Source of the DNA: a phage
DNA: 64,000 nucleotides
Reading direction: 5' to 3' (one strand)
NCBI GenBank assembly: GCA_012646185.1
Contig: GCA_012646185.1_4706.1
The notes below the pieces were generated by a model. The model had not been told where the DNA came from. It made no database searches and saw only the letters and a program-made list of their open reading frames with translations. Below, one piece after another: positions 5,537 to 57,267 of this stretch. The translations under genes and the position numbers were made by a program. Numbering within the stretch: position 1 is the first letter of the stretch; every line of letters begins with the position of its first letter.

Positions 5537-6877
5537 ATGATTAGTATTTTTGGTTTTTATACGTACAAAGGGTACGCTAATAACCACCCAAAAACCACGG
5601 CGAAATTCGGTGAGTTCAGTCAGCACAGTGCTACGTTCAGTCGCGAAATCGGCATCTATACCAACACGGCGTACGCACGTACGACCTTATTAGTGTTGAA
5701 TGCCGAAAACGAAGCTGGTGAAGCACAAACGCTGAATGACGACACCGCAGGCCGTATTCTTCAGGTTGGTCAATGGTTGCTGGAAAAAGCCGCATCGGGC
5801 GAAATCCAGGAAGACCGAGACCAGGTTATCAGTTACCTAAAAGACGACTTCACAACGTATCTGGATTCTATCGACATCCCAACACCCACCACCGATGGTA
5901 CAGTCTATCTACCGGCGTGGATCAGTTTCAAGATAACCGCCACCGGCGATGTCGTCAAGATTTGGTTGTCTGATAGCGTATTCCAAAGTCAATATCCAAA
6001 ATACGAATATGAAGTCGTTCCCCCTGTTCCTAAGGATCAGTTAGATACCTTCTTCGAAGATCTGGCAACATTGAAGAAACTGGTTGACAGTCGAAGCAGC
6101 GAGAAACTGACCGAAGAAATCAACGAGGTGCGCGACCAATTCCCAGACACACAATTGTGGACGAAAACCTATAAAGCGTACGATTACACCGACGATTCGA
6201 AATACATTAATACCGATTGGACGGTGATTATCTACGGTGCAGCAGGTAACAACATTGATAATATCAAGGAGTTCCTGCAAAACTGGATTCTTAGCAATAG
6301 TACGCATGGACGTCCAGACTGGGAAATCGTTCTGCCGGATCTTTTTATCCCGACAGAACACATCTTCATTCCAATCTGGAACCGCCACAGTGCGCCAGAA
6401 ATGACCAATCAGGCACGTATCTATAGTCCTATCTTCGATGATTCGTTGATGGATACCTACCTGAAAAACTTTGCTGATGGTTACGGCGAAACCGCCGAAG
6501 TCCGTAAATCGCTTCAAGCGGTGCCGACGTTGTGGCGCTCGATCGGTTTCTTAAGCGTTGGTAACTCACGTAACCGAGACGGTAAACTTAAGTTCTACGA
6601 TCGTTGGCCGCAATACGCGCTCATCAGCACAACCAGCATCGATATTAACCGTATCGATGATGCGACACGTGAATTCATCACGTTCACTTACGAAATGCTG
6701 AAACTGGCAGAATCGCTGACCGAAGACGACCCGGTACCGTTGGGTTATAGTCGTGTTACGCGTGGTAGCAATAGCTTCTTAGCGAAAAGCCACAACGATG
6801 TTCAGTATCTCTTCTTAACAAAAGAAGCGTTCCTGAAGAAAATGCCGGATGAAGCCGACACGCCTGTTGGAGGTTGA
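5537..6877 (+). CDS. hypothetical protein (446 aa)
   Basis: ATG at 5537 has GAGGA SD (the ATG at 5501 has none); stop lies 3 nt before the next gene start. Confidence 0.55.
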   Translation: MISIFGFYTYKGYANNHPKTTAKFGEFSQHSATFSREIGIYTNTAYARTTLLVLNAENEAGEAQTLNDDTAGRILQVGQWLLEKAASGEIQEDRDQVISYLKDDFTTYLDSIDIPTPTTDGTVYLPAWISFKITATGDVVKIWLSDSVFQSQYPKYEYEVVPPVPKDQLDTFFEDLATLKKLVDSRSSEKLTEEINEVRDQFPDTQLWTKTYKAYDYTDDSKYINTDWTVIIYGAAGNNIDNIKEFLQNWILSNSTHGRPDWEIVLPDLFIPTEHIFIPIWNRHSAPEMTNQARIYSPIFDDSLMDTYLKNFADGYGETAEVRKSLQAVPTLWRSIGFLSVGNSRNRDGKLKFYDRWPQYALISTTSIDINRIDDATREFITFTYEMLKLAESLTEDDPVPLGYSRVTRGSNSFLAKSHNDVQYLFLTKEAFLKKMPDEADTPVGG

Positions 6878-6879
6878 TT

Positions 6880-7506
6880 ATGGCTGTAACACGCATGACG
6901 CCAAGTCCCGGTGCGGTCGGGGTATTCACAGTATCAGCGCCGTTTACCGTTGGTGCGTCAACGCTATATACCGTTACAGCGTTGCGAAGATTCAGCGAAG
7001 TCATCGGTAGTGGAATCGATCTATTTGCGGAACTGTACGAACCGTTATCAATAGACAAATCCACATTCGAAGCGCATCTCGAAGCGAATGCTTATCTCGT
7101 CACGTTGCAACCGGATTACGGTGCACCCGTACTGGTACCTGATACGTATATCACGTCGTACCCAAAGAACGATTCCTTGCGGTATCGTCGCATTATTCTG
7201 GGTATCGATTTCGGGCCTCTTCCTCCCGGTCTTGACCTTTCGTATTTAACAACGATATTGAAAGGTAAGGCTAGTGATATTCTTGGTGTCGAACCTGAAG
7301 TTAAAACGATGGAAATCACTCTCGATGATACCGTTACTCAGGAACAACATCAGATAAACGAAGCCTGTCGTCAGGCTGCGATAAAAGAGCGGGATACCAT
7401 TTACGCACGCTGTGAAACGCAAGAGAAGCAGATAACGGCTTTACTTGCAACCCAAAAGCAACTTATTAAATTGCTTCAAGACGCCGGTATTAATCCGACA
7501 CCTTAA
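6880..7506 (+). CDS. hypothetical protein (208 aa)
   Basis: ATG with GGAGG SD embedded in the end of the upstream gene (the track start at 6874 is TTG). Confidence 0.55.
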   Translation: MAVTRMTPSPGAVGVFTVSAPFTVGASTLYTVTALRRFSEVIGSGIDLFAELYEPLSIDKSTFEAHLEANAYLVTLQPDYGAPVLVPDTYITSYPKNDSLRYRRIILGIDFGPLPPGLDLSYLTTILKGKASDILGVEPEVKTMEITLDDTVTQEQHQINEACRQAAIKERDTIYARCETQEKQITALLATQKQLIKLLQDAGINPTP

Positions 7507-7512
7507 CATATT

Positions 7513-7544
7513 CCCTCCTCCTTCCCTGTTGGGTTGGAGGAGGG
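7513..7544. terminator. conserved CT/GA hairpin (CCCTCCTCCTTCCC-TGTT-GGGTTGGAGGAGGG)
   Basis: Member of the intergenic hairpin family; lies between convergent genes. Confidence 0.6.
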
Positions 7545-10042: not shown

Positions 10043-10066
10043 GAATGAAATCTCGCTGGCTTACTT

Positions 10067-10093
10067 CACTTAAGTAATATAGCCGTGAAAAAT
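10067..10093 (-). promoter_or_regulatory. conserved 25-nt motif copy 1 (plus strand TCACTTAAGTAATATAGCCGTGAAA)
   Basis: One of four near-identical intergenic copies; minus-strand reading contains TATATTAC. Confidence 0.45.
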
Positions 10094-11658: not shown

Positions 11659-11662
11659 AAAC

Positions 11663-11694
11663 CATCCTCCCTTCCCTTACGGGTTGGGAGGATG
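11663..11694. terminator. conserved CT/GA hairpin (CATCCTCCCTTCCC-TTAC-GGGTTGGGAGGATG)
   Basis: Hairpin-family member between convergent gene ends. Confidence 0.6.
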
Positions 11695-11711
11695 AAATAT
11701 GCCGTTAAACG

Positions 11712-17584: not shown

Positions 17585-18673
17585 ATGAGCGACCTGGCAA
17601 CAGACAATCGCACAAAAGGGAGTCAGCTAGCTCCAGACAACAACGTAAGCGTTTTCCGTATCTATGCCTTGGGTACTGTTGCTGCCGACTTTTCCAATAA
17701 AAGTCTGGAGGAAGATCCTAACCAGGCGCTGGAGGTCTTTCTTGATGAGATGATGTCAGGCGCTGATGGGAAAGTTGAAGCGGCGGGAAGCGTGAAAGAA
17801 GTCAGTGCAACAGACGCTCAAGGGAACAGCTATACGGCGAAAGCGGCAACAACAACCAGCGTACAGTGTTATTGGTTACCTTTCGGTAGTAACCGGATGA
17901 CAGCACCTAACTTGAGGAAAGGTCAACGTGTGGTGGTCTGGCGTACCGCCGATGAAGAACAACTCTACTGGCAGCCCAAAGGAGGGGATAGTGAGCTGAT
18001 GACCATGGAATCGGTTATCCTCACCGTCAGCGCACGTCCTAGCGCTAAGAAGGACCGTAAATCGATTTCAACGGAAGACTGCTATTACCTAATGGTTGAT
18101 ACCTTCCTCAAGAAAGCGGTTATCGGTACAAGCGCACAGCTTGGTGAAGTTACCCAAGTCTACATGGAACTTAATCTGGACGAGGGTTACCTACAGGTTG
18201 CGGACAGCGTCCATCAAAATCTGTTGTTACTCCATTTTGTCGAGCATATGCTGCGTTATCAAAATCAGGATGACAGCATCATCGACGTGACAAAAAAGAA
18301 CATCACATTCCAATGCGAGGATACGCTCAAAGCAATCGCTAAGAACGATATCCGAATGAAAGCAAAAAATATTTATACCGAATGTGAGAACTTTGAACGT
18401 ACCAGCAAAACAGAAAGCGTTACGAGTCAGAATGTTTCTTTGAAGTGTGATCGTTACACCGCGCAAGTATCAGGACAGACCACGTTTAAATGTCCGAATA
18501 CGGTATTCACTGGAGCTGTAAGCTTCACAGGTGAAGACGGAAACACGATGACGTTGAATGGAAACTTCATACACATCGCAGGCTCTTGGCGTTCACCAAC
18601 CGGAACAAACGTATACACCCACGATCACGGCGGTGTAGATCGTGGTAGCGGTCGCACAGACCCGTTCCAATAA
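17585..18673 (+). CDS. hypothetical protein (362 aa)
   Basis: ATG with AGGAG SD; lone plus-strand gene inside a minus-strand block; followed by hairpin. Confidence 0.6.
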   Translation: MSDLATDNRTKGSQLAPDNNVSVFRIYALGTVAADFSNKSLEEDPNQALEVFLDEMMSGADGKVEAAGSVKEVSATDAQGNSYTAKAATTTSVQCYWLPFGSNRMTAPNLRKGQRVVVWRTADEEQLYWQPKGGDSELMTMESVILTVSARPSAKKDRKSISTEDCYYLMVDTFLKKAVIGTSAQLGEVTQVYMELNLDEGYLQVADSVHQNLLLLHFVEHMLRYQNQDDSIIDVTKKNITFQCEDTLKAIAKNDIRMKAKNIYTECENFERTSKTESVTSQNVSLKCDRYTAQVSGQTTFKCPNTVFTGAVSFTGEDGNTMTLNGNFIHIAGSWRSPTGTNVYTHDHGGVDRGSGRTDPFQ

Positions 18674-18699
18674 ACAAAAGAAAAAGAAATGCTATATAA

Positions 18700-18734
18700 C
18701 CTCCTTCCCTAGCCGTCAAGGCCGGGGAAGGAGG
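18700..18734. terminator. CT/GA hairpin variant (CCTCCTTCCC...GGGAAGGAGG)
   Basis: 10-bp stem; between convergent gene ends. Confidence 0.55.
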
Positions 18735-18749
18735 ATTATAGTTTATTTA

Positions 18750-19139
18750 TTAACGCGTTGCATTCTGGATGATTTCTTTTCCGATCTTAACCAAAGCGGG
18801 TATCTGTACAGCGGTTGCGCCTCGATGACGAAACGCGGTCGTTAACGCGGTATCGATACTCACCGCACGTCCGTGAAGACGATCGAAATAGACTTGAGTG
18901 ATTGCGGTAGCGTAATCCTTTCGCTGTTTCTTGGTTTGGCTCAACAGCACCGCACTATGACTAACGATGAAGTAAGCGATTAAGAAGAACGCTGCTGACC
19001 GCGAACCGGGTAGAAAACCTTGTCGCTTAGGGAGCATCTCACAATCGCGAACACTATTATCGTTCGCAAGATCTTCCATATCAACACAGCATAATTTTGC
19101 ATAGGTGTGGAGATAGTGGGTAAAAGTTGAATTTAACAT
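18750..19139 (-). CDS. hypothetical protein with one hydrophobic segment (129 aa)
   Basis: ATG with GAGGAAAG SD; last gene of an 8-gene minus-strand operon. Confidence 0.5.
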   Translation of the reverse strand: MLNSTFTHYLHTYAKLCCVDMEDLANDNSVRDCEMLPKRQGFLPGSRSAAFFLIAYFIVSHSAVLLSQTKKQRKDYATAITQVYFDRLHGRAVSIDTALTTAFRHRGATAVQIPALVKIGKEIIQNATR

Positions 19140-19244
19140 TTTCTTTCCTCGATTACAATGAGTTCAATGTATAGCTTAAACGTCACAGAACGACGTATAA
19201 CAGTTTGTTTTAATTTCTAAGGGGTTTCCCTATCTAAGATTGAT

Positions 19245-19607
19245 TTAAAGCGTTCTGAAGAGTTCTGTCGCGTTCTCGTCACGTAAACAGGCTTCGTTCA
19301 ACAATTCAGCTAACAGCTTCGACCGAACTTCAACAAATGTCCTGAGGCGATGCTCCCATTCTAAACGGATGGTGTACGTATTATCCAGGTTTTTGTAATC
19401 AACGACAGATGTAGAACAACGGGCTTCGCGTTTGTTCACGGCACCCCAAACATCACGGATAACCGTCACGCCTTTCTTGGTGCATGTAAACGTTAAAATA
19501 AAGCGATTATTCGCAGCTTCTTCACGGACGCCAACAAATTCACTTCGTAACGATGAGACTTTGATCAGTCGGTCAATAGCTAACGATAAACCGATACGTT
19601 GTTGCAT
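19245..19607 (-). CDS. hypothetical protein (120 aa)
   Basis: ATG with AGAGGGGA SD placed in the end of the upstream gene. Confidence 0.5.
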   Translation of the reverse strand: MQQRIGLSLAIDRLIKVSSLRSEFVGVREEAANNRFILTFTCTKKGVTVIRDVWGAVNKREARCSTSVVDYKNLDNTYTIRLEWEHRLRTFVEVRSKLLAELLNEACLRDENATELFRTL

Positions 19608-19608
19608 A

Positions 19609-20034
19609 TCAAATCCCCTCTTTCAGAATCTCATTAAGACCGTCAGTAATCCAGTCGAACTTCGTCTTAATCATGGCTGGGTTCAATCCATATACTTCCC
19701 ACACAAGCTGGGGTTTATGTGTTCCATCGTCCAAACAAAGCACATCGATTGAGAGTACCATACCACCCGTCAATTTCATGTTCTCGCAACTACGAAGATA
19801 TGCGGATTCTAGCAATACTTTCCCTAACGCAGTGCAAGCAAATGTTAACCGGGAAGAGTACAGGTACGATGACGTTTTACAGTAGGTTGCTGATATCGGT
19901 TGAATATGTTTGCGGAGTTTGGCGTCTTCACGTAAAAGCAATAACGTGTGATGTAACCGCGTATGCTCGGTAACCGATGAGCTATACTCACCGATACACT
20001 CTTCGGCGACTGATTTAGGCCATTTAATTTTCAT
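19609..20034 (-). CDS. hypothetical protein (141 aa)
   Basis: ATG with GAGGAA SD. Confidence 0.5.
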   Translation of the reverse strand: MKIKWPKSVAEECIGEYSSSVTEHTRLHHTLLLLREDAKLRKHIQPISATYCKTSSYLYSSRLTFACTALGKVLLESAYLRSCENMKLTGGMVLSIDVLCLDDGTHKPQLVWEVYGLNPAMIKTKFDWITDGLNEILKEGI

Positions 20035-20049
20035 GTTCGATTCCTCGTA

Positions 20050-20493
20050 TTAACACTGTGTTCCATTCGATAAGCGGGTGGTATCAAAACGATCCAGTTG
20101 GTGTACAATGCTATCAGCAACACGATGCAAATAGTGTATTTTGTCCATTCGTGAAATCGCAGAAATCGTCCAGCAAGCCTCTGACGTCCAATAGGTGCCG
20201 TCTTCACTAAGGCTAACGTTATAAACTAACTTCGTCATCACATTTCTCGCCTTATGCTCAGCAGACCAGAATATGTTTTCTAACACATCCTTCCCCGTTT
20301 GTGAAAACACGAACCCAAGCTTCACGTCGAAGTCGGATGCTTCAAGATTAACGCAGTGAAGATGATTCTCTAACGGCGCAAAAGAGGCTAAACGTTCCAG
20401 CGCATGTTGCAGTGTGGGATGATCGAGCTTTTCGAGATCGTCCACAGGTTGTTCAGGTACAATCGCGATCGATTTACAGAATTTAATTTCCAT
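20050..20493 (-). CDS. hypothetical protein (147 aa)
   Basis: ATG with AAGAGGAA SD; weak N-terminal resemblance to the 19609..20034 product. Confidence 0.5.
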   Translation of the reverse strand: MEIKFCKSIAIVPEQPVDDLEKLDHPTLQHALERLASFAPLENHLHCVNLEASDFDVKLGFVFSQTGKDVLENIFWSAEHKARNVMTKLVYNVSLSEDGTYWTSEACWTISAISRMDKIHYLHRVADSIVHQLDRFDTTRLSNGTQC

Positions 20494-20605
20494 GGTAGGT
20501 TCCTCTTGATAGTGGTTGATGATAGTAACGGGGACGGCGATGTCCCCTTGGTTTCTTATTGCCCCGCCCGAACCCGATGGGGTACAGGCGGGTGATGTTG
20601 ATGCG

Positions 20606-21013
20606 TTATAGCGGCATCAGACGTTCTTTAAGTTGGGTTAACTTATTTGCAACGATGTTCTCAACGTCGATCATCTTGTTCATGTTGTCGAGGGTATCCT
20701 GCCAGATGAAAATATCCACGGAACCGGTTCCGACTAACGCGTTCTCAGGACGATGGTCACGGGTCACGTAGCGTGGTCTCTGCGGGCAGGTTTGTAACTC
20801 GATCCAAAGCGCATCTAACGGACCGTGGTCCGTGACACCTAAGGCGAAGAATTCACCTCGTACGACCAGAACATCATCAGCCGTCCTGACACGGGTTGAT
20901 CCTTCGTACACCAATTCCATCTTTGCTCGACAGGCTGGGTTCTCGTTCCACGCCTGGACGGCATCGGCAAGGGCTATTGACGTTGCGGTGGTGTTCGTTT
21001 GATCATGTTGCAT
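20606..21013 (-). CDS. hypothetical protein (135 aa)
   Basis: ATG with GAGGAG SD. Confidence 0.5.
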   Translation of the reverse strand: MQHDQTNTTATSIALADAVQAWNENPACRAKMELVYEGSTRVRTADDVLVVRGEFFALGVTDHGPLDALWIELQTCPQRPRYVTRDHRPENALVGTGSVDIFIWQDTLDNMNKMIDVENIVANKLTQLKERLMPL

Positions 21014-21050
21014 TCTAAGCTCCTCAATCGTTCTACAACGAACTTTTAAT

Positions 21051-21073
21051 GGAAGGGAATATGTTTCCCTTCC
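21051..21073 (-). terminator. hairpin GGAAGGGAA...TTCCCTTCC (attenuator/terminator candidate)
   Basis: 9-bp stem between two operon genes; no T-tract, so possibly a processing or attenuation site. Confidence 0.35.
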
Positions 21074-21091
21074 TTGGGTTAGGTTATTGCG

Positions 21092-21367
21092 TTACACGGC
21101 TTTACAGCTTGCGTAAACCACAACTGTTCCGTTGTTGATTGCTTCAACCACATCCCGGGTTAACACAACGGCGTTATCGCTTCGAGACGACGGTGCGTAA
21201 TACCCTTCACCGTTCTCGGTAATCAGGCGATAACGGACTAAGCCTATGCTCGGTTCAACACGTAGCACCTTCTCAAGTTTGTATTTGATGATCTTCGTCA
21301 GGCTGACTGTGTCTGACGCGTAGATTGCTTTATAAACCTTGTTCTTTGCTGTCGGTTTCATCAACAT
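21092..21367 (-). CDS. hypothetical protein (91 aa)
   Basis: ATG start; weak SD. Confidence 0.45.
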   Translation of the reverse strand: MLMKPTAKNKVYKAIYASDTVSLTKIIKYKLEKVLRVEPSIGLVRYRLITENGEGYYAPSSRSDNAVVLTRDVVEAINNGTVVVYASCKAV

Positions 21368-21407
21368 GATTTCTGTTGTATTTTCCTTTTCGCTTGTTGG
21401 TGTTGGA

Positions 21408-21707
21408 TTAAGGTTTAGGTTCCGTTTTGTATTGTGCGAGTAATGTGTTGATCTGCTCCCGTTGTTCTTTTAAGTATGCGGGAAGCTGGTCTTCCCGTAC
21501 CGTTCCGATTTCCAACGTGATGTACCAGCGTTGTTCGGAAGCCTGCCATTGAAAACTGCTCTGTAGCCGTAGGATGCTAGGATCACGTACCTTGCTTGCA
21601 CTGTAGTGATCGAACCAATCCAGGTATTCTGCTTTCCCTTCCTCATCGGCAACGTAACGCTGCACGCTGTTCTTCCCTTTGTTTTCGTATCCCGTTGCAC
21701 GTATCAT
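21408..21707 (-). CDS. hypothetical protein (99 aa)
   Basis: ATG overlapping the upstream stop (ATGA) with AGGAGA SD; preferred over the 58-nt-overlapping upstream start. Confidence 0.45.
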   Translation of the reverse strand: MIRATGYENKGKNSVQRYVADEEGKAEYLDWFDHYSASKVRDPSILRLQSSFQWQASEQRWYITLEIGTVREDQLPAYLKEQREQINTLLAQYKTEPKP

Positions 21708-22486
21708 GCGAACGTTTCTCCTGTAATGTGTTGCGGATGGCGTAGCATGGTAGCATCCCATTGTACGATCCGGCTCCGGCTTACCAGCATCATGACGGAT
21801 TCATCGTCAAGCCCTGGCTGCGCAACCGGCAACCAACGTTCGTTAAGCACCTTCGCTTCAACACGTTTCTTGCGGGGATTGTAGCGCACTTCGCTAACCC
21901 AAGCGAATCCAAGTGGATGCACAACCCGTGGATAATACATGCGAAGCAATTGATGCATCCGATCCGTTGCCTCCAGATTGCAATCCACCATGTAAGGTTT
22001 CACCATGGTAAGCTTTTTGGTGTAATACGTTCCAACGGTATGGTTACGCCAACTTGGCAAGGCATGATCCCCTTCTCTCAGTTTGCTATCCGAGTTCATC
22101 GGCCAGACCTGCTGTTTACCGGCCAGCATCGCGTACTGCCGATCAACGCAACGAACCTGATCGGCGAACAATGGATCCAGAACATCATCCACCGCACCCT
22201 TATTGCGATAACCGTGATGTACCACCAACCTGCTTGCGCTCATCGATGCGGGATGCTGGCTCTTATGCGCATACAGCCCACCGTCACCGCGAGGGTCGTA
22301 AAGATAGCCGCATGCGCCACGCCATATCACCTTGCCTACGGTTCTCTCGTTTTCAAGCAGCATCGTCGGCCCATCAAGCAAATTGGTGAACCACTGCACC
22401 TTCACGCATTCCGCTTGGACATGCTCAGGTAATGCCTGATACTCTTTTTGGGTGTATAAGGTATCAAAAATGATTTCATCGTTCAT
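21704..22486 (-). CDS. hypothetical protein (260 aa)
   Basis: ATG with GAGGA SD; first gene downstream of motif copy 2. Confidence 0.55.
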   Translation of the reverse strand: MNDEIIFDTLYTQKEYQALPEHVQAECVKVQWFTNLLDGPTMLLENERTVGKVIWRGACGYLYDPRGDGGLYAHKSQHPASMSASRLVVHHGYRNKGAVDDVLDPLFADQVRCVDRQYAMLAGKQQVWPMNSDSKLREGDHALPSWRNHTVGTYYTKKLTMVKPYMVDCNLEATDRMHQLLRMYYPRVVHPLGFAWVSEVRYNPRKKRVEAKVLNERWLPVAQPGLDDESVMMLVSRSRIVQWDATMLRHPQHITGETFA

Positions 22487-22568
22487 TTAAAAAGTTCCTC
22501 TGTTTTTCACGTTAATTAAACAACGTATTGATTTCTATTTGACGCAATACGAACATTGTACGTATGCA

Positions 22569-22593
22569 TCACTAAGGTAATATAGTCGTGAAA
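22569..22593 (-). promoter_or_regulatory. conserved 25-nt motif copy 2 (plus strand TCACTAAGGTAATATAGTCGTGAAA)
   Basis: ~83 nt upstream (minus orientation) of the 21704..22486 start. Confidence 0.5.
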
Positions 22594-23286
22594 GGATTTG
22601 TGTTACAGAAAGGGTTTTGTTGTGTTTTAAGAAGGGATGGATTTAGAAGAGGTGTTTCATGGAAGGTAAACGAGGATAGGTATTTTGATTTAAGTAAGTA
22701 AGATGTTATCTGTATTCGTTAAAAGTGTATTGTTTATCTTAGGTTATGTCTTATTGTTTAATCGTTTAATATTTTTATCTAAGTAGGTTTAACTCTATCT
22801 TGTTTGTATATTTAAATTAAATCAATAAGCTTATCTTCAAAACAATGGATAACATGTGTTTACTACCTTAACGGTAACACATGTCATCTGTGCATTACAC
22901 TCCGTTATCACTTCGTTACATGCTTATAAGTTGGATAACTCAAAAAAACATTTGTGATACTCTTCTTCACGTTGTTCATCAGAGTATCTCGTCTATACTC
23001 ATTGCATTCGTATACGACATAACCGTTATACGCTAACGCTACGCTTATAGCTTGATAACTCTAAGGATAAAAACATAAACTCGCTTCGCTCGTTTAGTTT
23101 TTCTTTTTCTTAGAGTTATCCTGTTGCTCGTCTCTAAAGGACTTCGCTCCTCCCCCGTCCCCCGAAGGGGCCGGAGTCGTGGAAATTTTACTTTCCAAAT
23201 ACATTTACAACATCTGTAAACTTTTACTCCAGGTACTTAATCTTATCATTAGAAATTATAAAGAGAAGAATAAACACAAACATAAA

Positions 23287-23318
23287 CCTTCCTCCAACCC
23301 AACAGGGAAGGAGGAAGG
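23287..23318. terminator. conserved CT/GA hairpin (minus-strand reading CCTTCCTCCTTCCC-TGTT-GGGTTGGAGGAAGG)
   Basis: Directly downstream of the 23335..24228 stop. Confidence 0.6.
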
Positions 23319-23334
23319 GAGAGCTTGATTTTAA

Positions 23335-24228
23335 TTAATCGGCGGTGTTATAACCGAATACTGCTTTACCGTAGGTGTGAGTACCGTTAGCTAACGACAG
23401 CACCAGCACATGGTTGTACGTAGCGTTAACGCCCTTGTCAGTAGACTCGGTGGTAGCACCGTTATAGACAAAGGTAGCCGTTTGCAGATTGGCTTTCAGC
23501 TCGGTGATGATCTCATCACTGACACCTGTCTGCTCTTTGATCAGCGTAGTCAGGTTACCTGCCAGGCTTGCATCGATATTTACTTCGTTGCCAGTAATAG
23601 CTTGTAAACCTGCGGTGTAAGTACTGAAGTCTAACGGATAGGTTAACAGACGTGCTGACGTTTTGGTACCATCGCCATCATCAACGTAGGTTAAGTTACC
23701 CAGGTTGGTAACCTTGATGATGTTAGCCAGATCCAGCGTGGTGTTATAAACTTTAACTTGAACAGAGCCATACCACGCCAACGAATCTTCTTTGGCTTCC
23801 AGGGTGATCGTCTGGATACCATGCTGGTCGAAGGTAACCGGCGTAGCTAACGTTTCGGCTTTGATGTCTTTATCTTTATCCAGGAACTTCTCACCGGTCG
23901 GCGTGATCATACCGTAGCGTTGAGCTACAAGGTCAACCACATCACCGATGGTGGTGTCAGCAGTAACGTTAACACGTACAGCGATTTTCTGGAACCACTT
24001 AGCCAGATCCAGACGATGGTAGGTAACATCGCGGTTATTGAAGTAAGGTGTACCATCACCAGGGCTAAGCGTTAAAGTTGCTTCTGGAGCAGAAGCGCTT
24101 TTGGATTTAAGAACGTATTTAAGATCACTGTATTGGAAGCTGGCACCAGTGTCGGCGTTGAGCTGATTGATCTCATCAACGATAAGTTGCCAAGGTGTTT
24201 TTAAAGTAAGCGATACTTGAGTTGCCAT
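23335..24228 (-). CDS. virion-type protein, paralog-family member (297 aa)
   Basis: ATG with GAGGT SD; shares Y-x-R-N, YxRLDL and LAWxGSV motifs with the 35294, 37116 and 37978 products; strongly host-optimised codon usage. Confidence 0.6.
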   Translation of the reverse strand: MATQVSLTLKTPWQLIVDEINQLNADTGASFQYSDLKYVLKSKSASAPEATLTLSPGDGTPYFNNRDVTYHRLDLAKWFQKIAVRVNVTADTTIGDVVDLVAQRYGMITPTGEKFLDKDKDIKAETLATPVTFDQHGIQTITLEAKEDSLAWYGSVQVKVYNTTLDLANIIKVTNLGNLTYVDDGDGTKTSARLLTYPLDFSTYTAGLQAITGNEVNIDASLAGNLTTLIKEQTGVSDEIITELKANLQTATFVYNGATTESTDKGVNATYNHVLVLSLANGTHTYGKAVFGYNTAD

Positions 24229-25111: not shown

Positions 25112-25143
25112 CCCCTCCTCATCCGTTATTGGGTGAGGAGGGG
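25112..25143. terminator. CT/GA hairpin variant (CCCCTCCTCA...TGAGGAGGGG)
   Basis: 10-bp perfect stem ~200 nt downstream of the 24370..24912 stop, between convergent genes. Confidence 0.55.
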
Positions 25144-25206
25144 TCTTATACGTCTTTATGCGTTCCGTTCGTTCTGGAGCGTTTTAGGACGGTTTACGGC
25201 AGGGTT

Positions 25207-25968: not shown

Positions 25969-28017
25969 TCAAATACCCTTGGTTCCTTTCACGTGATGTG
26001 CGATTTCTTCAACCATTGCACGCAGAGCACGAAGCTGTTGGTCGTGTTCGTACCAACCACCTAACAGAACCCCGCTATACACCATGGTGTCAAGACTTAA
26101 CAGTCCTTTATCTGATACGTTGATCATTTCAGGGAACTGTTCTTGAACACGCTGTGCGATAACACCGATCTTCTCGACATCAGGATCGTAGTTGTGACGG
26201 AAACGGGCAAGCCCGCTGCGCGCCATTTCACGTAAACGTTCACTGAGAGATTCCGGATGATCTTTCAGATAACGGATGTCGTGTTTACTACGCTCATCCG
26301 AGCGAATGTAAGCGTTAGGAACATCGATATTGCTGTTGAAGTACAGCGCACTACCACCGCCTGCAGAGTTCCCCCAATAGAAGCGTGTGATCTCACCGCC
26401 GCCATTTTCCGTGATGATAACATGTTTACCTAAACGCGTACCACCATTACCATCAACGAAGACCAGTTTGTTTCCGCTGTAAGAACCCCAGAACAAGCGT
26501 GTATCGATGATGTGCGTCGCAGCGAGACGGGCGTTACGTGGTGTAGAATACACGGTGTTCACATCTTGCTGTGCATGCGCATCGGAAGCGATACCGTAGT
26601 TCTGTACGTTACCCAATCCTACCTGCGCTTTTGTAACAGCATGTGGGTTGTCTCGACGGTTAGCGTGAGCGTTAACCAGATCACCCGCTAATTTCTGAAT
26701 TGCCCAGTTGGTAGACTGTGGCGTCATGTAACGGTTCGTTGCAGAACCACCTTGCGCTTCAGCTTGGTTAGCGGTTGGATAGTTCTCAACACTTCCTAAC
26801 CCTACTTGTGCTTTAGACACTTGGTGTGGGTTATTCTTGTCAGCGATGTGTGCATTAAGCGGAACTAACGCAAAGGTCTCAATGGACGCTTTGGTTGTGT
26901 TCGGTGCCATTAATCGGTTAGCTGCAACACCGGCACGCGCTTCTTCTTCAGACGCCATTGGGTAGTCTTGCACATTCCCTAACCCAACCTGTGCTTTGGT
27001 CACCCTGTGTGGGTTGTTGTAATCGGCTTTATGCGCATTAAGTGGAATCAATGCGAACTGTTCGATCGCGGCAACGGTACGTAGCGGTGTCATGAAACGG
27101 TTGTTCGCTGTTCCGGCTTTCGCCTCATCATCCGAAGCGGTCGGGAAGTTATCAACGTTCCCAAGGTTAACCTGTGCTTTGGTGACGCTATGCGGGTTAT
27201 CCCGACGGTTAGCATGCGCGTCGACTAGATCGCCCGCCAGTTTAGCAATCGCCCATCCAACCGTTTGTGCGGTCATGTATCGGTCAGGTGCAGTACCGGC
27301 TTCTGCCTCCGCCTTGTTGGCGGTAGGATAGTTCTGTACGTTACCTAGTCCGACTTGGGCTTTTGTTACTTCGTGCGGGTTATCGGTACGGTTAGCATGC
27401 GCGTAATGCAGATCGGTCAGATCTTTATCCGCTGCTTGCATGTCTTTGCGTAGCTGATCGATTGCCGCCCAGAGACGGTTATCGGATGCGGCGTCACCGA
27501 TAAGTATTGCGGCTTTCAGTGAATAGATCGCTAAGCAAAGATGTTCGGTACCGTAGATAGCACTAACGTGGTGGATGTGTGGTTCAGGCGGATAGAGTTC
27601 CGGTTTGTTCTTGATGTCATCCCAGTTGATCGGACGATCGTCAAGTTTGAGTTCTTCGATAGCCTGATATAACGCGTCAATAAGACTTACGTAAACACCA
27701 CCGATGATACGATAGTCGTTAACTAATGTACCCTCGATATCATCGTTGATAATGGCGATGGCTGCACAGATTTCTTTACCCGCGTAAAGCGTTGCATCCT
27801 GATACAAGAAGATGGGTTTATAATCCACGCCTCGTACCAGTGTCTTACCGGTAAGCTTTTCAGTGATGACCAGACTTTCGGTGAAGAACGGTCCGCCATC
27901 GAGGGCGTAACATTTATTCTCGGTTCGTGGAACGGTATGCTCTTCACCAACGATGTGGTTGCTGGCGAGTGTACCGGTCCAGTCCTCGGGGTACTTCAGG
28001 GTAATTGGTGTCGACAT
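25969..28017 (-). CDS. tail fibre protein with phage fibre repeats and C-terminal S74-like intramolecular chaperone (682 aa)
   Basis: Five copies of NPHxVTKAQVGLGNVxNY repeat; C-terminal SDERSK motif resembling the autoproteolytic chaperone domain of endosialidase-type fibres. Confidence 0.85.
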   Translation of the reverse strand: MSTPITLKYPEDWTGTLASNHIVGEEHTVPRTENKCYALDGGPFFTESLVITEKLTGKTLVRGVDYKPIFLYQDATLYAGKEICAAIAIINDDIEGTLVNDYRIIGGVYVSLIDALYQAIEELKLDDRPINWDDIKNKPELYPPEPHIHHVSAIYGTEHLCLAIYSLKAAILIGDAASDNRLWAAIDQLRKDMQAADKDLTDLHYAHANRTDNPHEVTKAQVGLGNVQNYPTANKAEAEAGTAPDRYMTAQTVGWAIAKLAGDLVDAHANRRDNPHSVTKAQVNLGNVDNFPTASDDEAKAGTANNRFMTPLRTVAAIEQFALIPLNAHKADYNNPHRVTKAQVGLGNVQDYPMASEEEARAGVAANRLMAPNTTKASIETFALVPLNAHIADKNNPHQVSKAQVGLGSVENYPTANQAEAQGGSATNRYMTPQSTNWAIQKLAGDLVNAHANRRDNPHAVTKAQVGLGNVQNYGIASDAHAQQDVNTVYSTPRNARLAATHIIDTRLFWGSYSGNKLVFVDGNGGTRLGKHVIITENGGGEITRFYWGNSAGGGSALYFNSNIDVPNAYIRSDERSKHDIRYLKDHPESLSERLREMARSGLARFRHNYDPDVEKIGVIAQRVQEQFPEMINVSDKGLLSLDTMVYSGVLLGGWYEHDQQLRALRAMVEEIAHHVKGTKGI
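26520..27420. repeat. five tandem ~183-bp coding repeats (61-aa fibre repeat)
   Basis: GTGGGTT/GCGGGTT landmarks recur at ~183-bp spacing. Confidence 0.7.
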
Positions 28018-31703: not shown

Positions 31704-33857
31704 TTATAACGTTTCGAAGTCGGTTGCTTTGATAACCGCGTTGAAGTTGGCAAGGAATTCCTTAAGCAATGCTTGGAAGACATCACGAAACGCTGTGTTC
31801 GTCTGCAAGCTGGTTAAATAATCGTTCTTAAGGTAATCGCTCAGCTTACCGATCTTCTGCATCTTCTCGCCGTCTTGGTTCTCTCCAGGTTCTTGGCTGT
31901 TGATGTTAACCCATTTGATCCCTTCGAGATCGCCATCGGCAAGGAAGTTAGCGGGCGTCTCATCGTCGTTCAGGATTTTAATCGTGTCGCTGGATTCAAT
32001 ACCACCGTAAGCTTCCAGAAGCTGGTTGACTGTTAGCTTATTAGTGTTGATTGAACCATTGACACCATCGATACCGATGCCTGCACCTGTGATGGATGTC
32101 GCCGAAAGATCGATTGGTCCGGTTAACTTACCCCCGTTGATCGGTAACGCACCAACTTGCTCTGCGGTGTGTGTATGGTCAGCTAACGCCGCAAACGCCG
32201 TGATAGACTTATATGTCGAATACGGCGTCATATACGCTGATTGGTTGGTGTTGTCAGCCGCTTCAGTATCGGTAGCGACATTAAAGTTCTGCACGTTGCT
32301 GAGACCGACCTGCACCTTCGTTACTTCATGCGGGTTGTTCTTATTGACAACGTGTGCTGCAAAACCGTCACCGGCTAAAGCAGTGATTGCCGCTTTTGTC
32401 GCAGCCGGTGTCATATAGCGGTTGGTTGCTTCACCCGTTTGCGCCTCTTCGTCGGAAGCAACAGGATAGTTCTCAACGCTCCCCAACCCAACCTGAGATT
32501 TTGTTACTTGGTGTGGGTTTTCGGTATTCGCAATATGACTACTGAACCCTTGACCCGCCAGTTGCTCGATTGCGTAACGAACAAGTATTGGCGTCATGTA
32601 CTTGTTGTTAACCTGACCATCGATAGCTTCTTGGGTGGTGGCAACCCCGAAGTTTTGCACGCTCCCCAACCCAACTTGCGCTTTCGTAACAGCGTGAGGG
32701 TTATTGGTGTTACCGATGTGATCGGTAACCGTTGGGGTGATTAATCCTGCGATAGCGGCTGCCGTGGTCGCAGGGGTCATGTATTTATCGTTAGCAACAC
32801 CCGCAGCAGCTTCTACGTTAGATGCTACACCGTAGTTCAATACATTTCCTAACCCAACTTGAGCCTTGGTTACCCCGTGGGGGTTGTTCCTGTCTCCGGT
32901 ATGGGTTGTCAACGTAGCGTTGACATGATCGATACGCGTACTTAAGCCGTCGGTGATTGCTTTGATTGCGGCTCGTACACCCGCTGGTGTTGTGTACAGA
33001 TTGGTGGCCGTACCGGTAATGGTTGCATTACTATCGGCTGTACCGTAGTTCTCAACGTTTCCGAGTCCCACCTGGGCTTTCGTTACCTTGTGTGGGTTGT
33101 TATAGTTGCTGATGTGTGCAGCAGCACTATCACCACTCAGGTTAGCGATCATCTTACGCGTCATCGCCAACGTCATGTACAGATTTTCACCGATGGTTTC
33201 CAGATCGCTCTCGGTCGCCGTTGTGAAGTTCTGAACATTCCCCAAACCAACTTGTGCCTTGGTTACGCCATGTGGGTTATCGCGACGATTCTCGTGCTGC
33301 AGCAATGCGGTCATTGCTTTATTGAACCCTTCTTCAAGCGGTTCTTTCAATGATTCGATTGCAGCCACCACATCGTCCCACGTCATTGTGTCGGTTTCGA
33401 CATTATGTTGGTGGTTGATTGGCGGGAATACGGAAGGAACGTCAGCAACCTTTTCCCAGAACGTAACGCGGGGATCGTAAAGGTTGTTGGCTAAAACGTT
33501 AAGAATTTGTTGTTGATCAAGTGTAAACTCACCCCCCAGTGAATAGTAGTTCAGTTGCAACTGTCCACTGAATGCGGTGTCCAACAGCATGATGGAACCG
33601 TATAATTCCAGGCCGGTCAGCGCAGCCATGGCACGGAAGGGGTGAGTGCATAAAAAGTCAACGCCTTCTTCCAGATACGCGTTTGTTTCAGGGTTGTAGA
33701 TCTTTAACCCATTACGAAAATAGGGTGCGTATTTAGGAACGAGAAAGTTAAATCCGGTCCCCGTGGAAGGACGGACAGTGACGAGTTCTTCTGGAACCCA
33801 TGCGCCATCCAAATTCCCCTGCGGGTTATACGGAAGGCGTTTAATTTCATCTGTCAT
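31704..33857 (-). CDS. tail fibre protein with phage fibre repeats (717 aa)
   Basis: At least six copies of NPHxVTKAQVGLGNVxNF repeat. Confidence 0.85.
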   Translation of the reverse strand: MTDEIKRLPYNPQGNLDGAWVPEELVTVRPSTGTGFNFLVPKYAPYFRNGLKIYNPETNAYLEEGVDFLCTHPFRAMAALTGLELYGSIMLLDTAFSGQLQLNYYSLGGEFTLDQQQILNVLANNLYDPRVTFWEKVADVPSVFPPINHQHNVETDTMTWDDVVAAIESLKEPLEEGFNKAMTALLQHENRRDNPHGVTKAQVGLGNVQNFTTATESDLETIGENLYMTLAMTRKMIANLSGDSAAAHISNYNNPHKVTKAQVGLGNVENYGTADSNATITGTATNLYTTPAGVRAAIKAITDGLSTRIDHVNATLTTHTGDRNNPHGVTKAQVGLGNVLNYGVASNVEAAAGVANDKYMTPATTAAAIAGLITPTVTDHIGNTNNPHAVTKAQVGLGSVQNFGVATTQEAIDGQVNNKYMTPILVRYAIEQLAGQGFSSHIANTENPHQVTKSQVGLGSVENYPVASDEEAQTGEATNRYMTPAATKAAITALAGDGFAAHVVNKNNPHEVTKVQVGLSNVQNFNVATDTEAADNTNQSAYMTPYSTYKSITAFAALADHTHTAEQVGALPINGGKLTGPIDLSATSITGAGIGIDGVNGSINTNKLTVNQLLEAYGGIESSDTIKILNDDETPANFLADGDLEGIKWVNINSQEPGENQDGEKMQKIGKLSDYLKNDYLTSLQTNTAFRDVFQALLKEFLANFNAVIKATDFETL
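32180..33305. repeat. about six tandem ~183-bp coding repeats (fibre repeat)
   Basis: Periodic recurrence of the repeat at the DNA level, similar to 26520..27420. Confidence 0.7.
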
Positions 33858-35252: not shown

Positions 35253-35284
35253 CCCTCCTCCTTCCCTTACGGGTTGGAGGAGGG
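35253..35284. terminator. conserved CT/GA hairpin (CCCTCCTCCTTCCC-TTAC-GGGTTGGAGGAGGG)
   Basis: Archetype of the hairpin family; between convergent gene ends. Confidence 0.6.
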
Positions 35285-44321: not shown

Positions 44322-44355
44322 ACGGACGTAAAAAAAAAAAATAACACATAGTTAA

Positions 44356-44389
44356 CCTTCTCCCCTTCCCTTACGGGTTGGGGAGAAGG
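44356..44389. terminator. conserved CT/GA hairpin (CCTTCTCCCCTTCCC-TTAC-GGGTTGGGGAGAAGG)
   Basis: Between convergent gene ends; A12 run 15 nt upstream on the plus strand. Confidence 0.6.
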
Positions 44390-44406
44390 GCTATGCGCTA
44401 TTTAAC

Positions 44407-50725: not shown

Positions 50726-50750
50726 TCACCTAGGTAATGTAAGCGTCAAA
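50726..50750 (-). promoter_or_regulatory. conserved 25-nt motif copy 3 (plus strand TCACCTAGGTAATGTAAGCGTCAAA)
   Basis: Between the family hairpin and the 49140..50576 start (minus orientation). Confidence 0.5.
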
Positions 50751-50784
50751 TTTTTTCTATTCGCAACAATAAACGGCATAGAAA

Positions 50785-50814
50785 CCTCCCCCAACCCTTA
50801 CGGGCTGAGGGAGG
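50785..50814. terminator. conserved CT/GA hairpin (CCTCCC-CCAACCC-TTAC-GGGCTGA-GGGAGG)
   Basis: Downstream of the major structural gene stop in minus orientation. Confidence 0.6.
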
Positions 50815-50913
50815 CTGACTTATGTATCACGGTGCCGGATGAATGTCCGGTGCAATGAAACCATCCGCAACGTTGTCGTCAAGAATATCGTCCAACGAAG
50901 CAGCTACGGTAGT

Positions 50914-55582: not shown

Positions 55583-55615
55583 CCCTCCTCCAACCCGTAA
55601 GGGAAGGAGGAGGGG
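55583..55615. terminator. conserved CT/GA hairpin, inverted orientation (CCCTCCTCCAACCC-GTAA-GGGAAGGAGGAGGGG)
   Basis: Exact reverse complement of the 35253 copy; between convergent gene ends; A10 run upstream. Confidence 0.6.
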
Positions 55616-57207: not shown

Positions 57208-57232
57208 TCACCTAGGTAATGTAGTCGCGAAA
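57208..57232 (-). promoter_or_regulatory. conserved 25-nt motif copy 4 (plus strand TCACCTAGGTAATGTAGTCGCGAAA)
   Basis: 35 nt from the family hairpin at 57268; same arrangement as copy 3. Confidence 0.5.
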
Positions 57233-57267
57233 TAAACTGGAGTAATGCGAAATAAGACAGCATAGAA

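Follow-up and report, generated by a model that had tools for sequence, protein, structure and literature searches.

An early-transcribed cassette of eight small genes in a Goslar-like jumbo phage and its possible role at the phage-host interface

In the hyperplastic regions of T4-like phages, as in the anti-defence islands of smaller phages, small ORFs driven by early promoters lie at a fixed position between conserved genes, and their number and identity vary among close relatives. The early promoters recognised by jumbo-phage virion RNA polymerases share an AT-rich core around -10 that is conserved (PMC7598289). Most of the small genes of PhiKZ are dispensable, and its contiguous non-essential regions have tentatively been called 'anti-defense loci' (10.1101/2025.11.23.690004). 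The window analysed here, a 64,000-nt stretch of phage DNA (GenBank assembly GCA_012646185.1, contig GCA_012646185.1_4706.1), comes from a close relative of the nucleus-forming jumbo phage Escherichia phage Goslar. A first-pass annotation, made from the sequence alone, had described eight tightly packed minus-strand ORFs (91–260 aa) as an operon driven by a conserved motif and as a candidate host-takeover or anti-defence cassette. All eight were recovered and correspond one for one to Goslar gp021 to gp014, which are all annotated as hypothetical; the cassette region shares 95.5% nucleotide identity with Goslar (Table 1).

The cassette resembles the virion RNA polymerase early operons of PhiKZ-like phages (Chimalliviridae) in having an AT-rich promoter core in front of a same-strand cluster of small hypothetical genes, in being transcribed without the nucleus or the non-virion polymerase, and in ending at a hairpin terminator of conserved sequence. 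It differs from them in that its promoter motif, TTTCRCGNCTAYATTACYT, is specific to the Goslar group, in that its transcription start site is predicted from the motif, and in that neither PhiKZ nor 201phi2-1 has sequence homologues of its proteins. Like the PhiKZ 'anti-defense loci' (10.1101/2025.11.23.690004), it is a run of small genes in a nucleus-forming phage for which dispensability in the laboratory, with a benefit under certain conditions, is plausible, but none of its products is homologous to the PhiKZ proteins that have been studied, i.e. the ribosome-binding gp14, the degradosome inhibitor Dip, Tad1 and the Juk activator gp241. It shares with the T4-like regions and the islands of smaller phages a fixed position, an early promoter and changes in the number and identity of ORFs between close relatives; in contrast to these, it relies for transcription on a multisubunit polymerase encoded by the phage and working within a membrane vesicle, and it consists largely of a few paralogue families (the gp021, gp015-017 and gp018 types) rather than of unrelated genes. 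It also contains no marker gene of known anti-defence function by which the assignment could be anchored. We consider it probable, at about 0.6, that the cassette is an early accessory island of a Goslar-like chimallivirus acting at the phage-host interface; this figure applies to the explanation as a whole, including the reading of the region as one polycistronic early transcription unit extending from the promoter motif to the terminator.

Table 1. Features of the cassette and its borders, listed from the promoter motif to the terminator (positions in the window)
Feature	Position	Strand	Remarks
Early-promoter motif, copy 2 (TTTCACGACTATATTACCTTAGTGA)	22569..22594	-	Conserved motif; predicted virion RNA polymerase binding site
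Predicted 5' untranslated leader, ~80 nt	22487..22568	-	Ends in SD sequence GAGGA; near-invariant among relatives
Gene 1, gp021 family, 260 aa	21704..22486	-	Variable N-terminal half (~aa 10–145) and conserved C-terminal domain
Gene 2, gp020 orthologue, 99 aa	21408..21707	-	Hydrophilic; start overlaps stop of gene 1 (ATGA)
Gene 3, gp019 orthologue, 91 aa	21092..21367	-	Basic; SD poorly spaced
Intergenic RNA hairpin GGAAGGGAA-ACAUA-UUCCCUUCC	21051..21073	-	Intergenic region folds with z = -3.5
Gene 4, gp018 orthologue, 135 aa	20606..21013	-	Acidic; peptides found for Goslar orthologue
Two intergenic RNA hairpins, 20563-20592 and 20530-20547	20530..20592	-	Latter GGGGAC..GUCCCC; z = -3.1
Gene 5, gp017 orthologue, 147 aa	20050..20493	-	Acidic; member of gp015/016/017 family
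Gene 6, gp016 orthologue, 141 aa	19609..20034	-	Paralogue of gene 5
Gene 7, gp015 orthologue, 120 aa	19245..19607	-	Probable shorter paralogue of genes 5 and 6
Non-coding spacer, 105 nt	19140..19244	-	91–98% identity in all relatives; better conserved than adjacent genes
Gene 8, gp014 orthologue, 129 aa	18750..19139	-	pI 9.5; most conserved cassette gene
Terminator hairpin closing the operon	18700..18734	.	Fold and U-rich tract; common to convergent tail-spike gene gp013

The first ATG of the cassette lies 83 nt downstream of the motif. The window contains four copies of the motif, each of them on the minus strand, compared with a chance expectation of 0.37, and four were reached in 1 of 100 shuffles. 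Upstream of the first cassette gene the motif is conserved in all 7 phages compared and agrees with the published description of early promoters (PMC7598289) in its AT-rich core near -10. In Goslar, the motif is also found ahead of the early gene chmA, inside the 91 nt displayed before the ATG for its RNA-seq-mapped start site, and the predicted leader of the cassette is similar in length to this stretch; the exact start site of the cassette is predicted from the motif.

Published RNA-seq data are available for the Goslar orthologues, i.e. for another phage than that of the window, at 30 min after infection with ChmA knockdown versus control. When infection was arrested before nucleus formation by this knockdown, gp014-021 changed by log2FC +0.8 to +1.4, compared with -3 to -7 for the flanking genes gp005-013 and gp022-036, so that the Goslar orthologues belong to the early class, apart from the nucleus-dependent structural genes. 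In Goslar, copies of the motif head gp004-001, gp021-014, gp040-037 and gp046-044, and these are exactly the blocks among gp001-050 (the first ~52 kb) that are still transcribed under knockdown. Since gp014-021 is exactly one of these four motif-headed persistent blocks, there is good support for early transcription of the cassette by the virion RNA polymerase. The proposal that motif copy 2 drives one early operon is thus supported by both the position of the motif and the RNA-seq class of the orthologues.

The locus has the anatomy of an operon. The genes are closely spaced, with an ATGA overlap of 4 nt between genes 1 and 2, and are closed by a strong terminator (dG -30 kcal/mol, z = -5.3, followed by a U-rich tract), which is kept in relatives and also annotated in Goslar. 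Each gene had been credited with its own Shine-Dalgarno (SD) sequence; this holds for 7 of the 8 (GAGG, AGGA or GGAG, 6–10 nt before the ATG) and fails for the 91-aa gene, which has only AAGGA about 16 nt upstream. Also in line with a single unit, read density per nt in Goslar under knockdown, as calculated from the published data, declines smoothly from ~1.1 at gp021 to ~0.6 at gp014. The internal hairpins noticed in the first-pass annotation do exist (Table 1), but attenuation at these sites, which it had suggested, can at most be mild, as read density stays within about two-fold along the cassette. The hairpins hold the same positions in most relatives: the one between genes 3 and 4 is kept in two of them (L005 and L011), imperfect in a third (L009) and degenerate in a fourth (L012), and a GGGGAC-type hairpin occurs between genes 4 and 5 in 4 of 4 relatives checked, with compensatory changes. 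In 3 of these 4, a hairpin of the latter type is also found elsewhere, either separating gp021-family genes or ahead of the first extra paralogue.

Searches of Pfam, PHROGs, PADLOC and NCBIfam with the eight proteins yielded no match above threshold, in agreement with the earlier observation that they contain no recognisable catalytic motif, and PDB sequence searches returned nothing at E < 0.1. In searches of 5.8 billion proteins, and exhaustively of 1.84 billion representatives, homologues of the families used as queries were found only in Goslar-like phages, and by these searches the families are restricted to this lineage. No sequence or profile similarity to characterised anti-defence or host-shutoff families (Acr, Ocr/Ard, Tad, Gad, Dip and others) was detected in Pfam, PHROGs, PADLOC, NCBIfam or PDB. 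This lack of resemblance to any known anti-defence or host-shutoff factor counts against the explanation favoured here.

The locus is always bordered by gp013, the tail-spike gene, and gp022, a DUF7941 gene, and relatives hold 8, 9, 10 or 11 genes between them; a fixed position between conserved genes combined with variable gene content in close relatives is characteristic of an accessory or hyperplastic region. The 'arms-race-like' character attributed to the locus is likewise borne out by the expansion of paralogues and by the exchange of alleles between phages whose flanks are 94–98% identical in nucleotides. Deeply diverged alleles, with saturated dS of 1.4–3.5 compared with 0.01–0.1 for conserved alleles of the same genes, are shuffled independently of the genome backbone. 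For example, the backbone of L009 is only ~84% identical to the window, yet its gp017 and the N-terminal half of its gp021 are 98% and 94.5% identical, respectively. The 105-nt spacer is 91% identical in L009. All eight genes are under purifying selection, with dN/dS of ~0 to 0.7 against relatives and no higher than 0.5 in well-diverged comparisons. The mosaic variability of the locus comes from the recombining of old alleles, with dN/dS values under 1, and not from demonstrable positive selection, which counts against the explanation favoured here. The exchange, duplication and loss of these small orphan genes between near-identical phages fit host-interaction or anti-defence genes.

The gp021 family is seen only in Goslar-like phages and is represented by 1–2 additional paralogues in relatives. 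Identity of gene 1 to Goslar gp021 is 60.5% overall, rising from ~35% over the N-terminal half to ~96% over the C-terminal one, the C-terminal domain being marked by the motifs HPLG(F/Y)A, WLP and WD; its AlphaFold model is poor (pLDDT 56). A diversity-generating retroelement was considered as the source of the variable half and rejected, since substitutions affect all bases rather than adenine specifically and are accompanied by indels, and since dS is saturated. The recurrence of the same alleles in other phages points instead to recombination. For gene 2, whose longest reading extends to 21761 (117 aa), the ATG at 21707 was preferred on the basis of the Goslar annotation and the ATGA overlap, a feature shared by 5 of 7 phages; Goslar is its sole tblastn match among phage genomes. 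Some relatives have a diverged 156-aa allele of gp018 and an extra 145-aa gene, which may be a gp018 paralogue (hhalign E 0.019 over 107 columns).

Genes 5 and 6 had been suspected of being weakly paralogous. Plain BLASTP gave no signal between them, but profile-profile comparison with hhalign (probability 93.5%, E 2e-7, ~131 columns) and an HMM search (E 7e-6) bear out the relationship, which extends more weakly to gene 7 (hhalign E 3e-4 and 3e-3; HMM search E 8e-4), so that gp015 is probably a shorter paralogue of gp016 and gp017. This family provides the only confident folded model in the cassette, with a generic fold and a weak structural resemblance to PhiKZ/201phi2-1 proteins.

In the favoured explanation, the injected virion RNA polymerase would transcribe the cassette from a genome enclosed in the early infection vesicle, at a stage when no phage nucleus has formed, and the mRNA would then be translated in the host cytoplasm, where the products presumably act. 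These would be eight small proteins of lineage-restricted families, of a binding rather than an enzymatic type: the two-domain gp021, translationally coupled to gp020, followed by gp019, gp018, the paralogues gp017, gp016 and gp015, and gp014. As the locus would be an accessory recombination hot spot at which related phages swap alleles and copy numbers, the most likely targets of the proteins are components of the host or of competitors, bound in the vulnerable period that precedes the nucleus. Such a function at the host interface may consist of i) host takeover, ii) neutralising or evading immunity that acts on phage RNA or protein, or iii) tuning of host range.

The last gene of the cassette bears on two other readings. 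The gp014 protein is basic and has one strongly hydrophobic segment of 19 residues (aa 49–67, Kyte-Doolittle mean 1.97), by which it is probably anchored in the membrane; it is seen only in Goslar-like contigs and is 85–98% identical in relatives. In its hydrophobic segment and basic charge it recalls small early membrane proteins such as Imm and Sp of T4. Early proteins including a putatively membrane-anchored gp014 might thus block a second, related phage, with the alleles tracking the competitors to be excluded, and early expression of the genes agrees with such superinfection exclusion, as does the exchange of alleles among co-circulating relatives, which fits phage-phage as well as phage-host conflict. 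We regard this as unlikely, since no homology to known exclusion proteins was found in Pfam, PHROGs, PADLOC or NCBIfam and since variation within the cassette is lowest in gp014, whereas specificity determinants are expected to vary.

The strong conservation of gp014 and of the spacer preceding it within the group counts against the favoured explanation, as it is more easily reconciled with a housekeeping role than with an arms race. The cassette, which has the expression class and promoter type of chmA and in which gp020 is also well conserved within the group, could encode lineage-specific helpers of the core infection programme, involved in maturation of the early vesicle, where a membrane-anchored gp014 could act, in mRNA export or in delivery of the genome to the nucleus as it forms, with no role in host interaction. 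However, the families are absent outside Goslar-like phages, whereas the vesicle and the nucleus are common to the whole family, and differences in gene number and alleles between phages 94–98% identical would be unusual for core machinery. We find this reading improbable.

Mass spectrometry of a purified Goslar virion preparation found peptides of gp016, gp017 and gp018 among the proteins listed, which demonstrates that these three proteins are translated. Their occurrence in virion preparations counts against the early-island explanation, and the first-pass annotation had named detection in virions as evidence against its own proposal. The estimated copies per virion (gp017 ~12–29, gp018 ~3–6, gp016 <1) could indicate that some products, gp017 above all, are packaged, injected with the DNA and active in the next infection cycle. 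This has little to recommend it: none of the three proteins, among those listed, rises above the contaminant background of the preparation, in which the non-virion proteins PhuZ (~114–268), chimallin (~84–198) and ChmC (~52–122) are far more abundant and which, according to the Goslar authors, carried over intracellular assemblies, and the genes are of the early class, unlike the nucleus-dependent structural genes. That the ORFs have little present function and are simply carried in a recombination hot spot would agree with the lack of recognisable domains, the narrow distribution of the families and the gain and loss of genes between relatives, but is very improbable, being largely refuted by the dN/dS values, which stay below 1 in all eight genes, comparisons of deeply diverged alleles included, and opposed by the conserved SD sites and translational coupling, the detected peptides and the confident model of the gp015-017 family.

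Within the preferred reading of the cassette as an early accessory island, a more specific proposal is doubtful but can be put in definite terms. In this proposal, gp021 would be a modular early effector in which a conserved C-terminal domain is combined with an exchangeable N-terminal specificity domain, and which, together with gp020 and gp015-017, would neutralise strain-specific immune sensors that target nucleus-forming phages before the nucleus is formed. If this were true, no anti-defence island of an enterobacterial chimallivirus would have been defined before this one, and all of its protein families would be new.

Megablast of window positions 18000-23500 matched only Escherichia phage vB_EcoM_Goslar, a nucleus-forming jumbo phage of the Chimalliviridae (237 kb), at 95.5% identity. 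Run SRR10990315 yields a Logan contig that matches window positions 18703-23313 at 100% identity, indicating that the same exact phage had been sequenced earlier. The eight minus-strand ORFs of the cassette, whose coordinates in the first-pass annotation proved correct, have one-to-one counterparts of the same length in Goslar (gp021, gp020, gp019, gp018, gp017, gp016, gp015 and gp014), all annotated as 'hypothetical protein'. The longest possible ORF of the second gene (gp020) starts at 21761; the ATG at 21707 gives a protein of 99 aa, produces the ATGA overlap with the stop codon of the first gene that had been proposed, and agrees with the Goslar annotation. Each gene had been credited with its own Shine-Dalgarno sequence, and a well-spaced one precedes seven of them but not the 91-aa gene.

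As also proposed, the cassette lies directly downstream of motif copy 2 (TATATTAC), one of four copies in the window, every one on the minus strand, of the early-promoter motif TTTCRCGNCTAYATTACYT(ARGTGA). Copy 2 is kept in seven of seven related phages, as is the nearly invariant leader. Goslar chmA, the archetype of an early gene, has the same motif (TTTCAGGGTTATATTACCTAGGTGA) 73-97 nt before its ATG; it falls inside the sequence, beginning 91 nt upstream of the ATG, in which Armbruster et al. (cited below) display the RNA-seq-mapped start site. This placement agrees with the general description of jumbo-phage early promoters, in which a phage-specific conserved AT-rich core near -10 lies upstream of early operons (PMC7598289; PMC11512511). 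Scans for sigma-70 promoters and simple terminators gave chance-level results and are irrelevant, since the phage uses its own polymerases; a degenerate early motif in the 105-nt spacer before gp014 was rejected, having by eye only CTATA in common with the motif.

In two relatives (contigs L007 and L009), a 43-nt insertion within the motif, aligned to window ~22575-22580, duplicates its TTACCT core (in L007 the longer stretch TTACCTTCATGATG) and introduces a short palindrome, resulting in a TATATTACC core upstream of a second, partial motif copy. Motif copy 4 (Goslar 49723-49741) lies within Goslar gp047 as annotated (62 aa, 49584-49772), the gene with the lowest read counts of its block; this ORF may be mis-annotated, as its start codon would lie upstream of the transcript if transcription begins at the motif. 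The non-coding region upstream of the cassette promoter is unusually long (~740 nt), with an AT-rich tract, several inverted repeats, no Rfam match and no ORF longer than 51 aa; the distance from gp022 to the first cassette gene (800-950 nt) is maintained in relatives.

Coordinates of the cassette and of associated features (window positions unless marked Goslar)
Feature	Position	Strand	Remark
Gene 1 (gp021)	21704-22486	minus	
Gene 2 (gp020)	21408-21707	minus	
Gene 3 (gp019)	21092-21367	minus	
Gene 4 (gp018)	20606-21013	minus	
Gene 5 (gp017)	20050-20493	minus	
Gene 6 (gp016)	19609-20034	minus	
Gene 7 (gp015)	19245-19607	minus	
Gene 8 (gp014)	18750-19139	minus	
Motif copy 1	10066-10091	minus	
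Motif copy 2	22569-22594	minus	83 nt upstream of first cassette ATG
Motif copy 3	50726-50751	minus	
Motif copy 4	57208-57233	minus	
Goslar motif copy	Goslar 2558		heads gp004-001
Goslar motif copy	Goslar 15058		heads gp021-014
Goslar motif copy	Goslar 43257		heads gp040-037
Goslar motif copy	Goslar 49723		heads gp046-044
Terminator hairpin	18700-18734		-30 kcal/mol, then U-rich tract; closes operon
Intergenic fold	20494-20605		z = -3.1 vs shuffles
Intergenic fold	21014-21091		z = -3.5 vs shuffles
gp015/gp014 spacer	19140-19244		105 nt
Upstream non-coding region	22595-23334		
Inverted repeat, 20-nt arms	23054-23073/23101-23120		
Inverted repeat, 13-nt arms	22848-22860/22876-22888		
GC-rich palindromes	7513-7544, 23287-23318, 25113-25144, 35253-35284, 50784-50815, 55583-55614; also 11660-11702, 44354-44396		
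183-nt tandem repeats	26558-27438		in ORF 25969-28017 (minus)
183-nt tandem repeats	32267-33281		in ORF 31704-33857 (minus)

Armbruster et al. (bioRxiv 10.1101/2023.09.20.558163) reported that knockdown of chimallin (ChmA) arrests Goslar at the early-infection-vesicle stage, the remaining transcriptome being early-infection-like and made by the injected virion RNA polymerase. In their RNA-seq data (Supplementary Table 2), gp014-021 show log2 fold changes of +0.8 to +1.4 under the knockdown, and gp005-013 and gp022-036 lose 3 to 7 log2 units. Within gp001-050, just three further blocks escape the effect, gp001-004, gp037-040 and gp044-047, which makes four persisting blocks, as many as there are motif copies. 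The early timing suspected for the cassette is therefore seen in its Goslar orthologues. Control read densities (published Goslar counts divided by gene length, our own arithmetic) are 1.2, 1.15, 1.07, 1.64, 1.08, 0.99, 0.79 and 0.87 per nt from gp021 to gp014, and those under knockdown fall from ~1.1 to ~0.6 across the cassette, a profile consistent with a single transcript that decays mildly from 5' to 3' and meets no strong internal termination. The region is an operon that the virion RNA polymerase transcribes early in infection, its anatomy and timing being established to a good standard.

Internal hairpins had been taken to suggest attenuation or processing. The hairpins are real, with significant folds in both intergenic regions, and the GGGGAC..GUCCCC hairpin is present, with compensatory stem changes, in four of four relatives checked; in three of these, further hairpins of this type lie between gp021-family genes or ahead of the first additional paralogue. 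From the read density, any attenuation at the internal hairpins would be mild at most. Reads are somewhat more abundant over gp018, the segment that the two hairpin regions bound, which would suit a stability or processing role for the flanking hairpins. Both gp014 and the spacer preceding it are conserved throughout the relatives; the spacer is 91-98% identical in all of them, more conserved than the adjoining coding sequence even in the most distant phage, and carries a small conserved hairpin (ACGUC-N7-GACGU). No Rfam match was found anywhere in 18500-23500. GC-rich palindromes of one family (CCCTCCTCC...GGAGGAGGG) are found repeatedly at the ends of genes along the window; they look like sequence-conserved terminators of the kind described in PhiKZ and 201phi2-1. 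Breaks in the Logan contig L016 fall near two hairpin terminators, the 23287-23318 palindrome and the hairpin closing the operon.

None of the eight proteins was recognised above threshold by Pfam, PHROGs, NCBIfam or PADLOC, in keeping with the lack of recognisable catalytic motifs noted on first inspection, and a PDB sequence search gave no match; hits to DUF3701 (E 0.024), a PHROG (E 0.044) and a tautomerase model (E 0.074) were disregarded as sub-threshold noise. A gp021-family profile retrieved 36 proteins among 5.8 billion, and an exhaustive HMMER scan of 1.84 billion representatives only 6, all of this one family; the single new match whose locus was fetched is located in this cassette. 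The gp021-family proteins with a long contig recorded belong to Goslar-like phage genomes (~200-250 kb), and wherever a source is named it is an E. coli, Shigella or Salmonella assembly. Equally narrow distributions were obtained with the gp015/016/017 (28 proteins) and gp014 (5 proteins) profiles, and Goslar was the sole match of gp018, gp019, gp020 and gp021 by tblastn against 50,697 phage genomes. The gp014 protein is basic, with one hydrophobic segment of membrane-spanning length.

Direct BLASTP of the eight proteins against one another gave nothing significant, paralogy being visible only through profiles built from relatives. With these, the weak paralogy suspected for genes 5 and 6 was supported, gp017 and gp016 being full-length paralogues (hhalign probability 93.5%, E 2e-7; gp016 HMM against gp017, E 7e-6). 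Judged from the same kind of profile, gp015 is probably a shorter member of this family (hhalign E 3e-4, HMM E 8e-4), and a 145-aa gene that some relatives carry in addition may share ancestry with the gp018 family (E 0.019, 107 columns). Paralogues of gp021 in relatives have 277-300 aa (hhalign E 3e-14). For gp017, AlphaFold run with the family alignment gave a good model (pLDDT 84, pTM 0.80), a beta-alpha-beta-beta-alpha-beta-beta-alpha sandwich. In a viral structure library this model best matches (E 2e-5 to 1e-3, TM 0.35-0.56) uncharacterised proteins 130-165 aa long, most of which come from other jumbo phages (PhiPA3, 201phi2-1, PA7 and Erwinia phages Simmy50, Kwan and Stratton), hinting at a wider fold family. 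The gp021 model (AlphaFold, 33 homologues) is too poor for use (pLDDT 56), and its Foldseek search of the PDB, which gave no match at E < 0.1, is not interpreted. The locus is an early accessory cassette of a jumbo phage, encoding small orphan proteins without a recognisable enzymatic domain.

In five further Goslar-like genomes the cassette is fixed in position, flanked on one side by the tail-spike gene (gp013) and on the other by the DUF7941 gene (gp022), with 8, 9, 10 or 11 genes; the genomes differ by additional genes (one or two gp021 paralogues, or a gp018-like gene) or by the lack of gp017. Between the window and Goslar, gp021 is 60.5% identical overall, with ~35% identity at residues ~10-145 and ~96% at residues 146-260, and the Shine-Dalgarno sequence and the genes downstream of gp021 are 95-100% identical. 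Diverged alleles have saturated dS values (1.4-3.5) and flanks of 94-98% nucleotide identity, the conserved alleles of the same genes having dS values of 0.01-0.1. Saturated dS beside near-identical flanks indicates old alleles moved by recombination rather than fast local mutation. Mosaicism goes in both directions: three relatives (L005, L011 and L012) have flanks 94-98% identical to the window and unalignable gp016/017/018 and gp021 N-terminal halves, and L009 has a backbone only ~84% identical to the window, yet its gp017 is 98% and its gp021 N-terminal half 94.5% identical. The locus is a recombination hot spot in which alleles are exchanged independently of the genome backbone. Neither the substitution pattern nor the presence of the alleles in other phages fits a diversity-generating retroelement as the source of gp021 variability, and this reading was rejected.

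In L009, a Shigella sonnei-derived phage, the gp022-orthologue DUF7941 gene (6120-7019) is split into ORFs of 78 and 202 aa by either a frameshift or an assembly error. The genomes represented by L009, L011, L012 and proteins P0009-P0012 and P0034 are complete or nearly complete and Goslar-like (235-250 kb contigs) and lie within isolate assemblies labelled Shigella sonnei, Shigella flexneri, Salmonella enterica and E. coli, which suggests carrier-state infection or culture contamination. A 249-aa gp021 allele occurs in two Salmonella-labelled assemblies and in metagenome-derived contigs, too few cases for a host association. Elsewhere in the window, two large minus-strand ORFs, the first the counterpart of Goslar gp025 (Peptidase_S74, tail fibre-like), contain diverged 183-nt (61-codon) tandem repeats, which look like repeated structural domains common to two tail-fibre-type proteins.

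Expression before the nucleus forms, lineage restriction, paralogue expansion and backbone-independent allele exchange are expected of genes at the phage-host or phage-phage interface. We therefore favour, with a probability of about 0.6, the view that the cassette products are host-interface factors for anti-defence, host takeover or host-range tuning. The first-pass annotation had proposed a host-takeover or anti-defence cassette; its observations are confirmed and this interpretation is supported in part, by the early operon and accessory hot spot, but no product belongs to a recognised family, and a specific anti-defence activity is hypothetical. Superinfection exclusion seems unlikely as the role of the cassette. 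Slightly less likely still, the proteins would be lineage-specific helpers of vesicle and nucleus biogenesis; their transcripts are present at the vesicle stage, but the gene content of the locus varies among relatives. That the products are packaged is improbable. Mass spectrometry detected peptides of gp016-018, among the matches listed, with estimated copies per Goslar virion of ~12-29 for gp017, ~3-6 for gp018 and <1 for gp016, but PhuZ, chimallin and ChmC reached ~50-270 apparent copies in the same preparation, and the authors describe intracellular assemblies carried over into it (bioRxiv 10.64898/2026.04.21.720040). With levels below those of carried-over proteins, the detections prove that gp016, gp017 and gp018 are translated and are poor evidence of packaging. 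All eight genes are under purifying selection (dN/dS ~0 to 0.7 against relatives, <=0.5 in well-diverged comparisons), and filler ORFs are the least credible reading.

Nucleus-forming phages shield their DNA from restriction enzymes and CRISPR, and their exposed point is the first minutes, when early mRNAs and proteins are alone in the cytoplasm. Defences active at this point are beginning to be discovered, among them Avs5, whose trigger is an early protein sensed at the infection vesicle (10.1101/2025.07.08.663546). The features of the cassette parallel those of clusters of dispensable small genes in PhiKZ, tentatively termed 'anti-defence loci' (10.1101/2025.11.23.690004). A compact, early and highly variable cassette in an E. 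coli-infecting phage is a natural place to search for counter-measures, and since Goslar knockdown tools work, the question is directly testable. The comparative picture, with three paralogue families, backbone-independent allele swapping and a two-domain lead gene with an exchangeable half, guides the choice of genes. The value of the cassette is mainly that of a well-defined, experimentally tractable candidate locus; should no host-dependent phenotype emerge, its value would lie in the record of a recombination hot spot and of the early promoter of the Goslar group.
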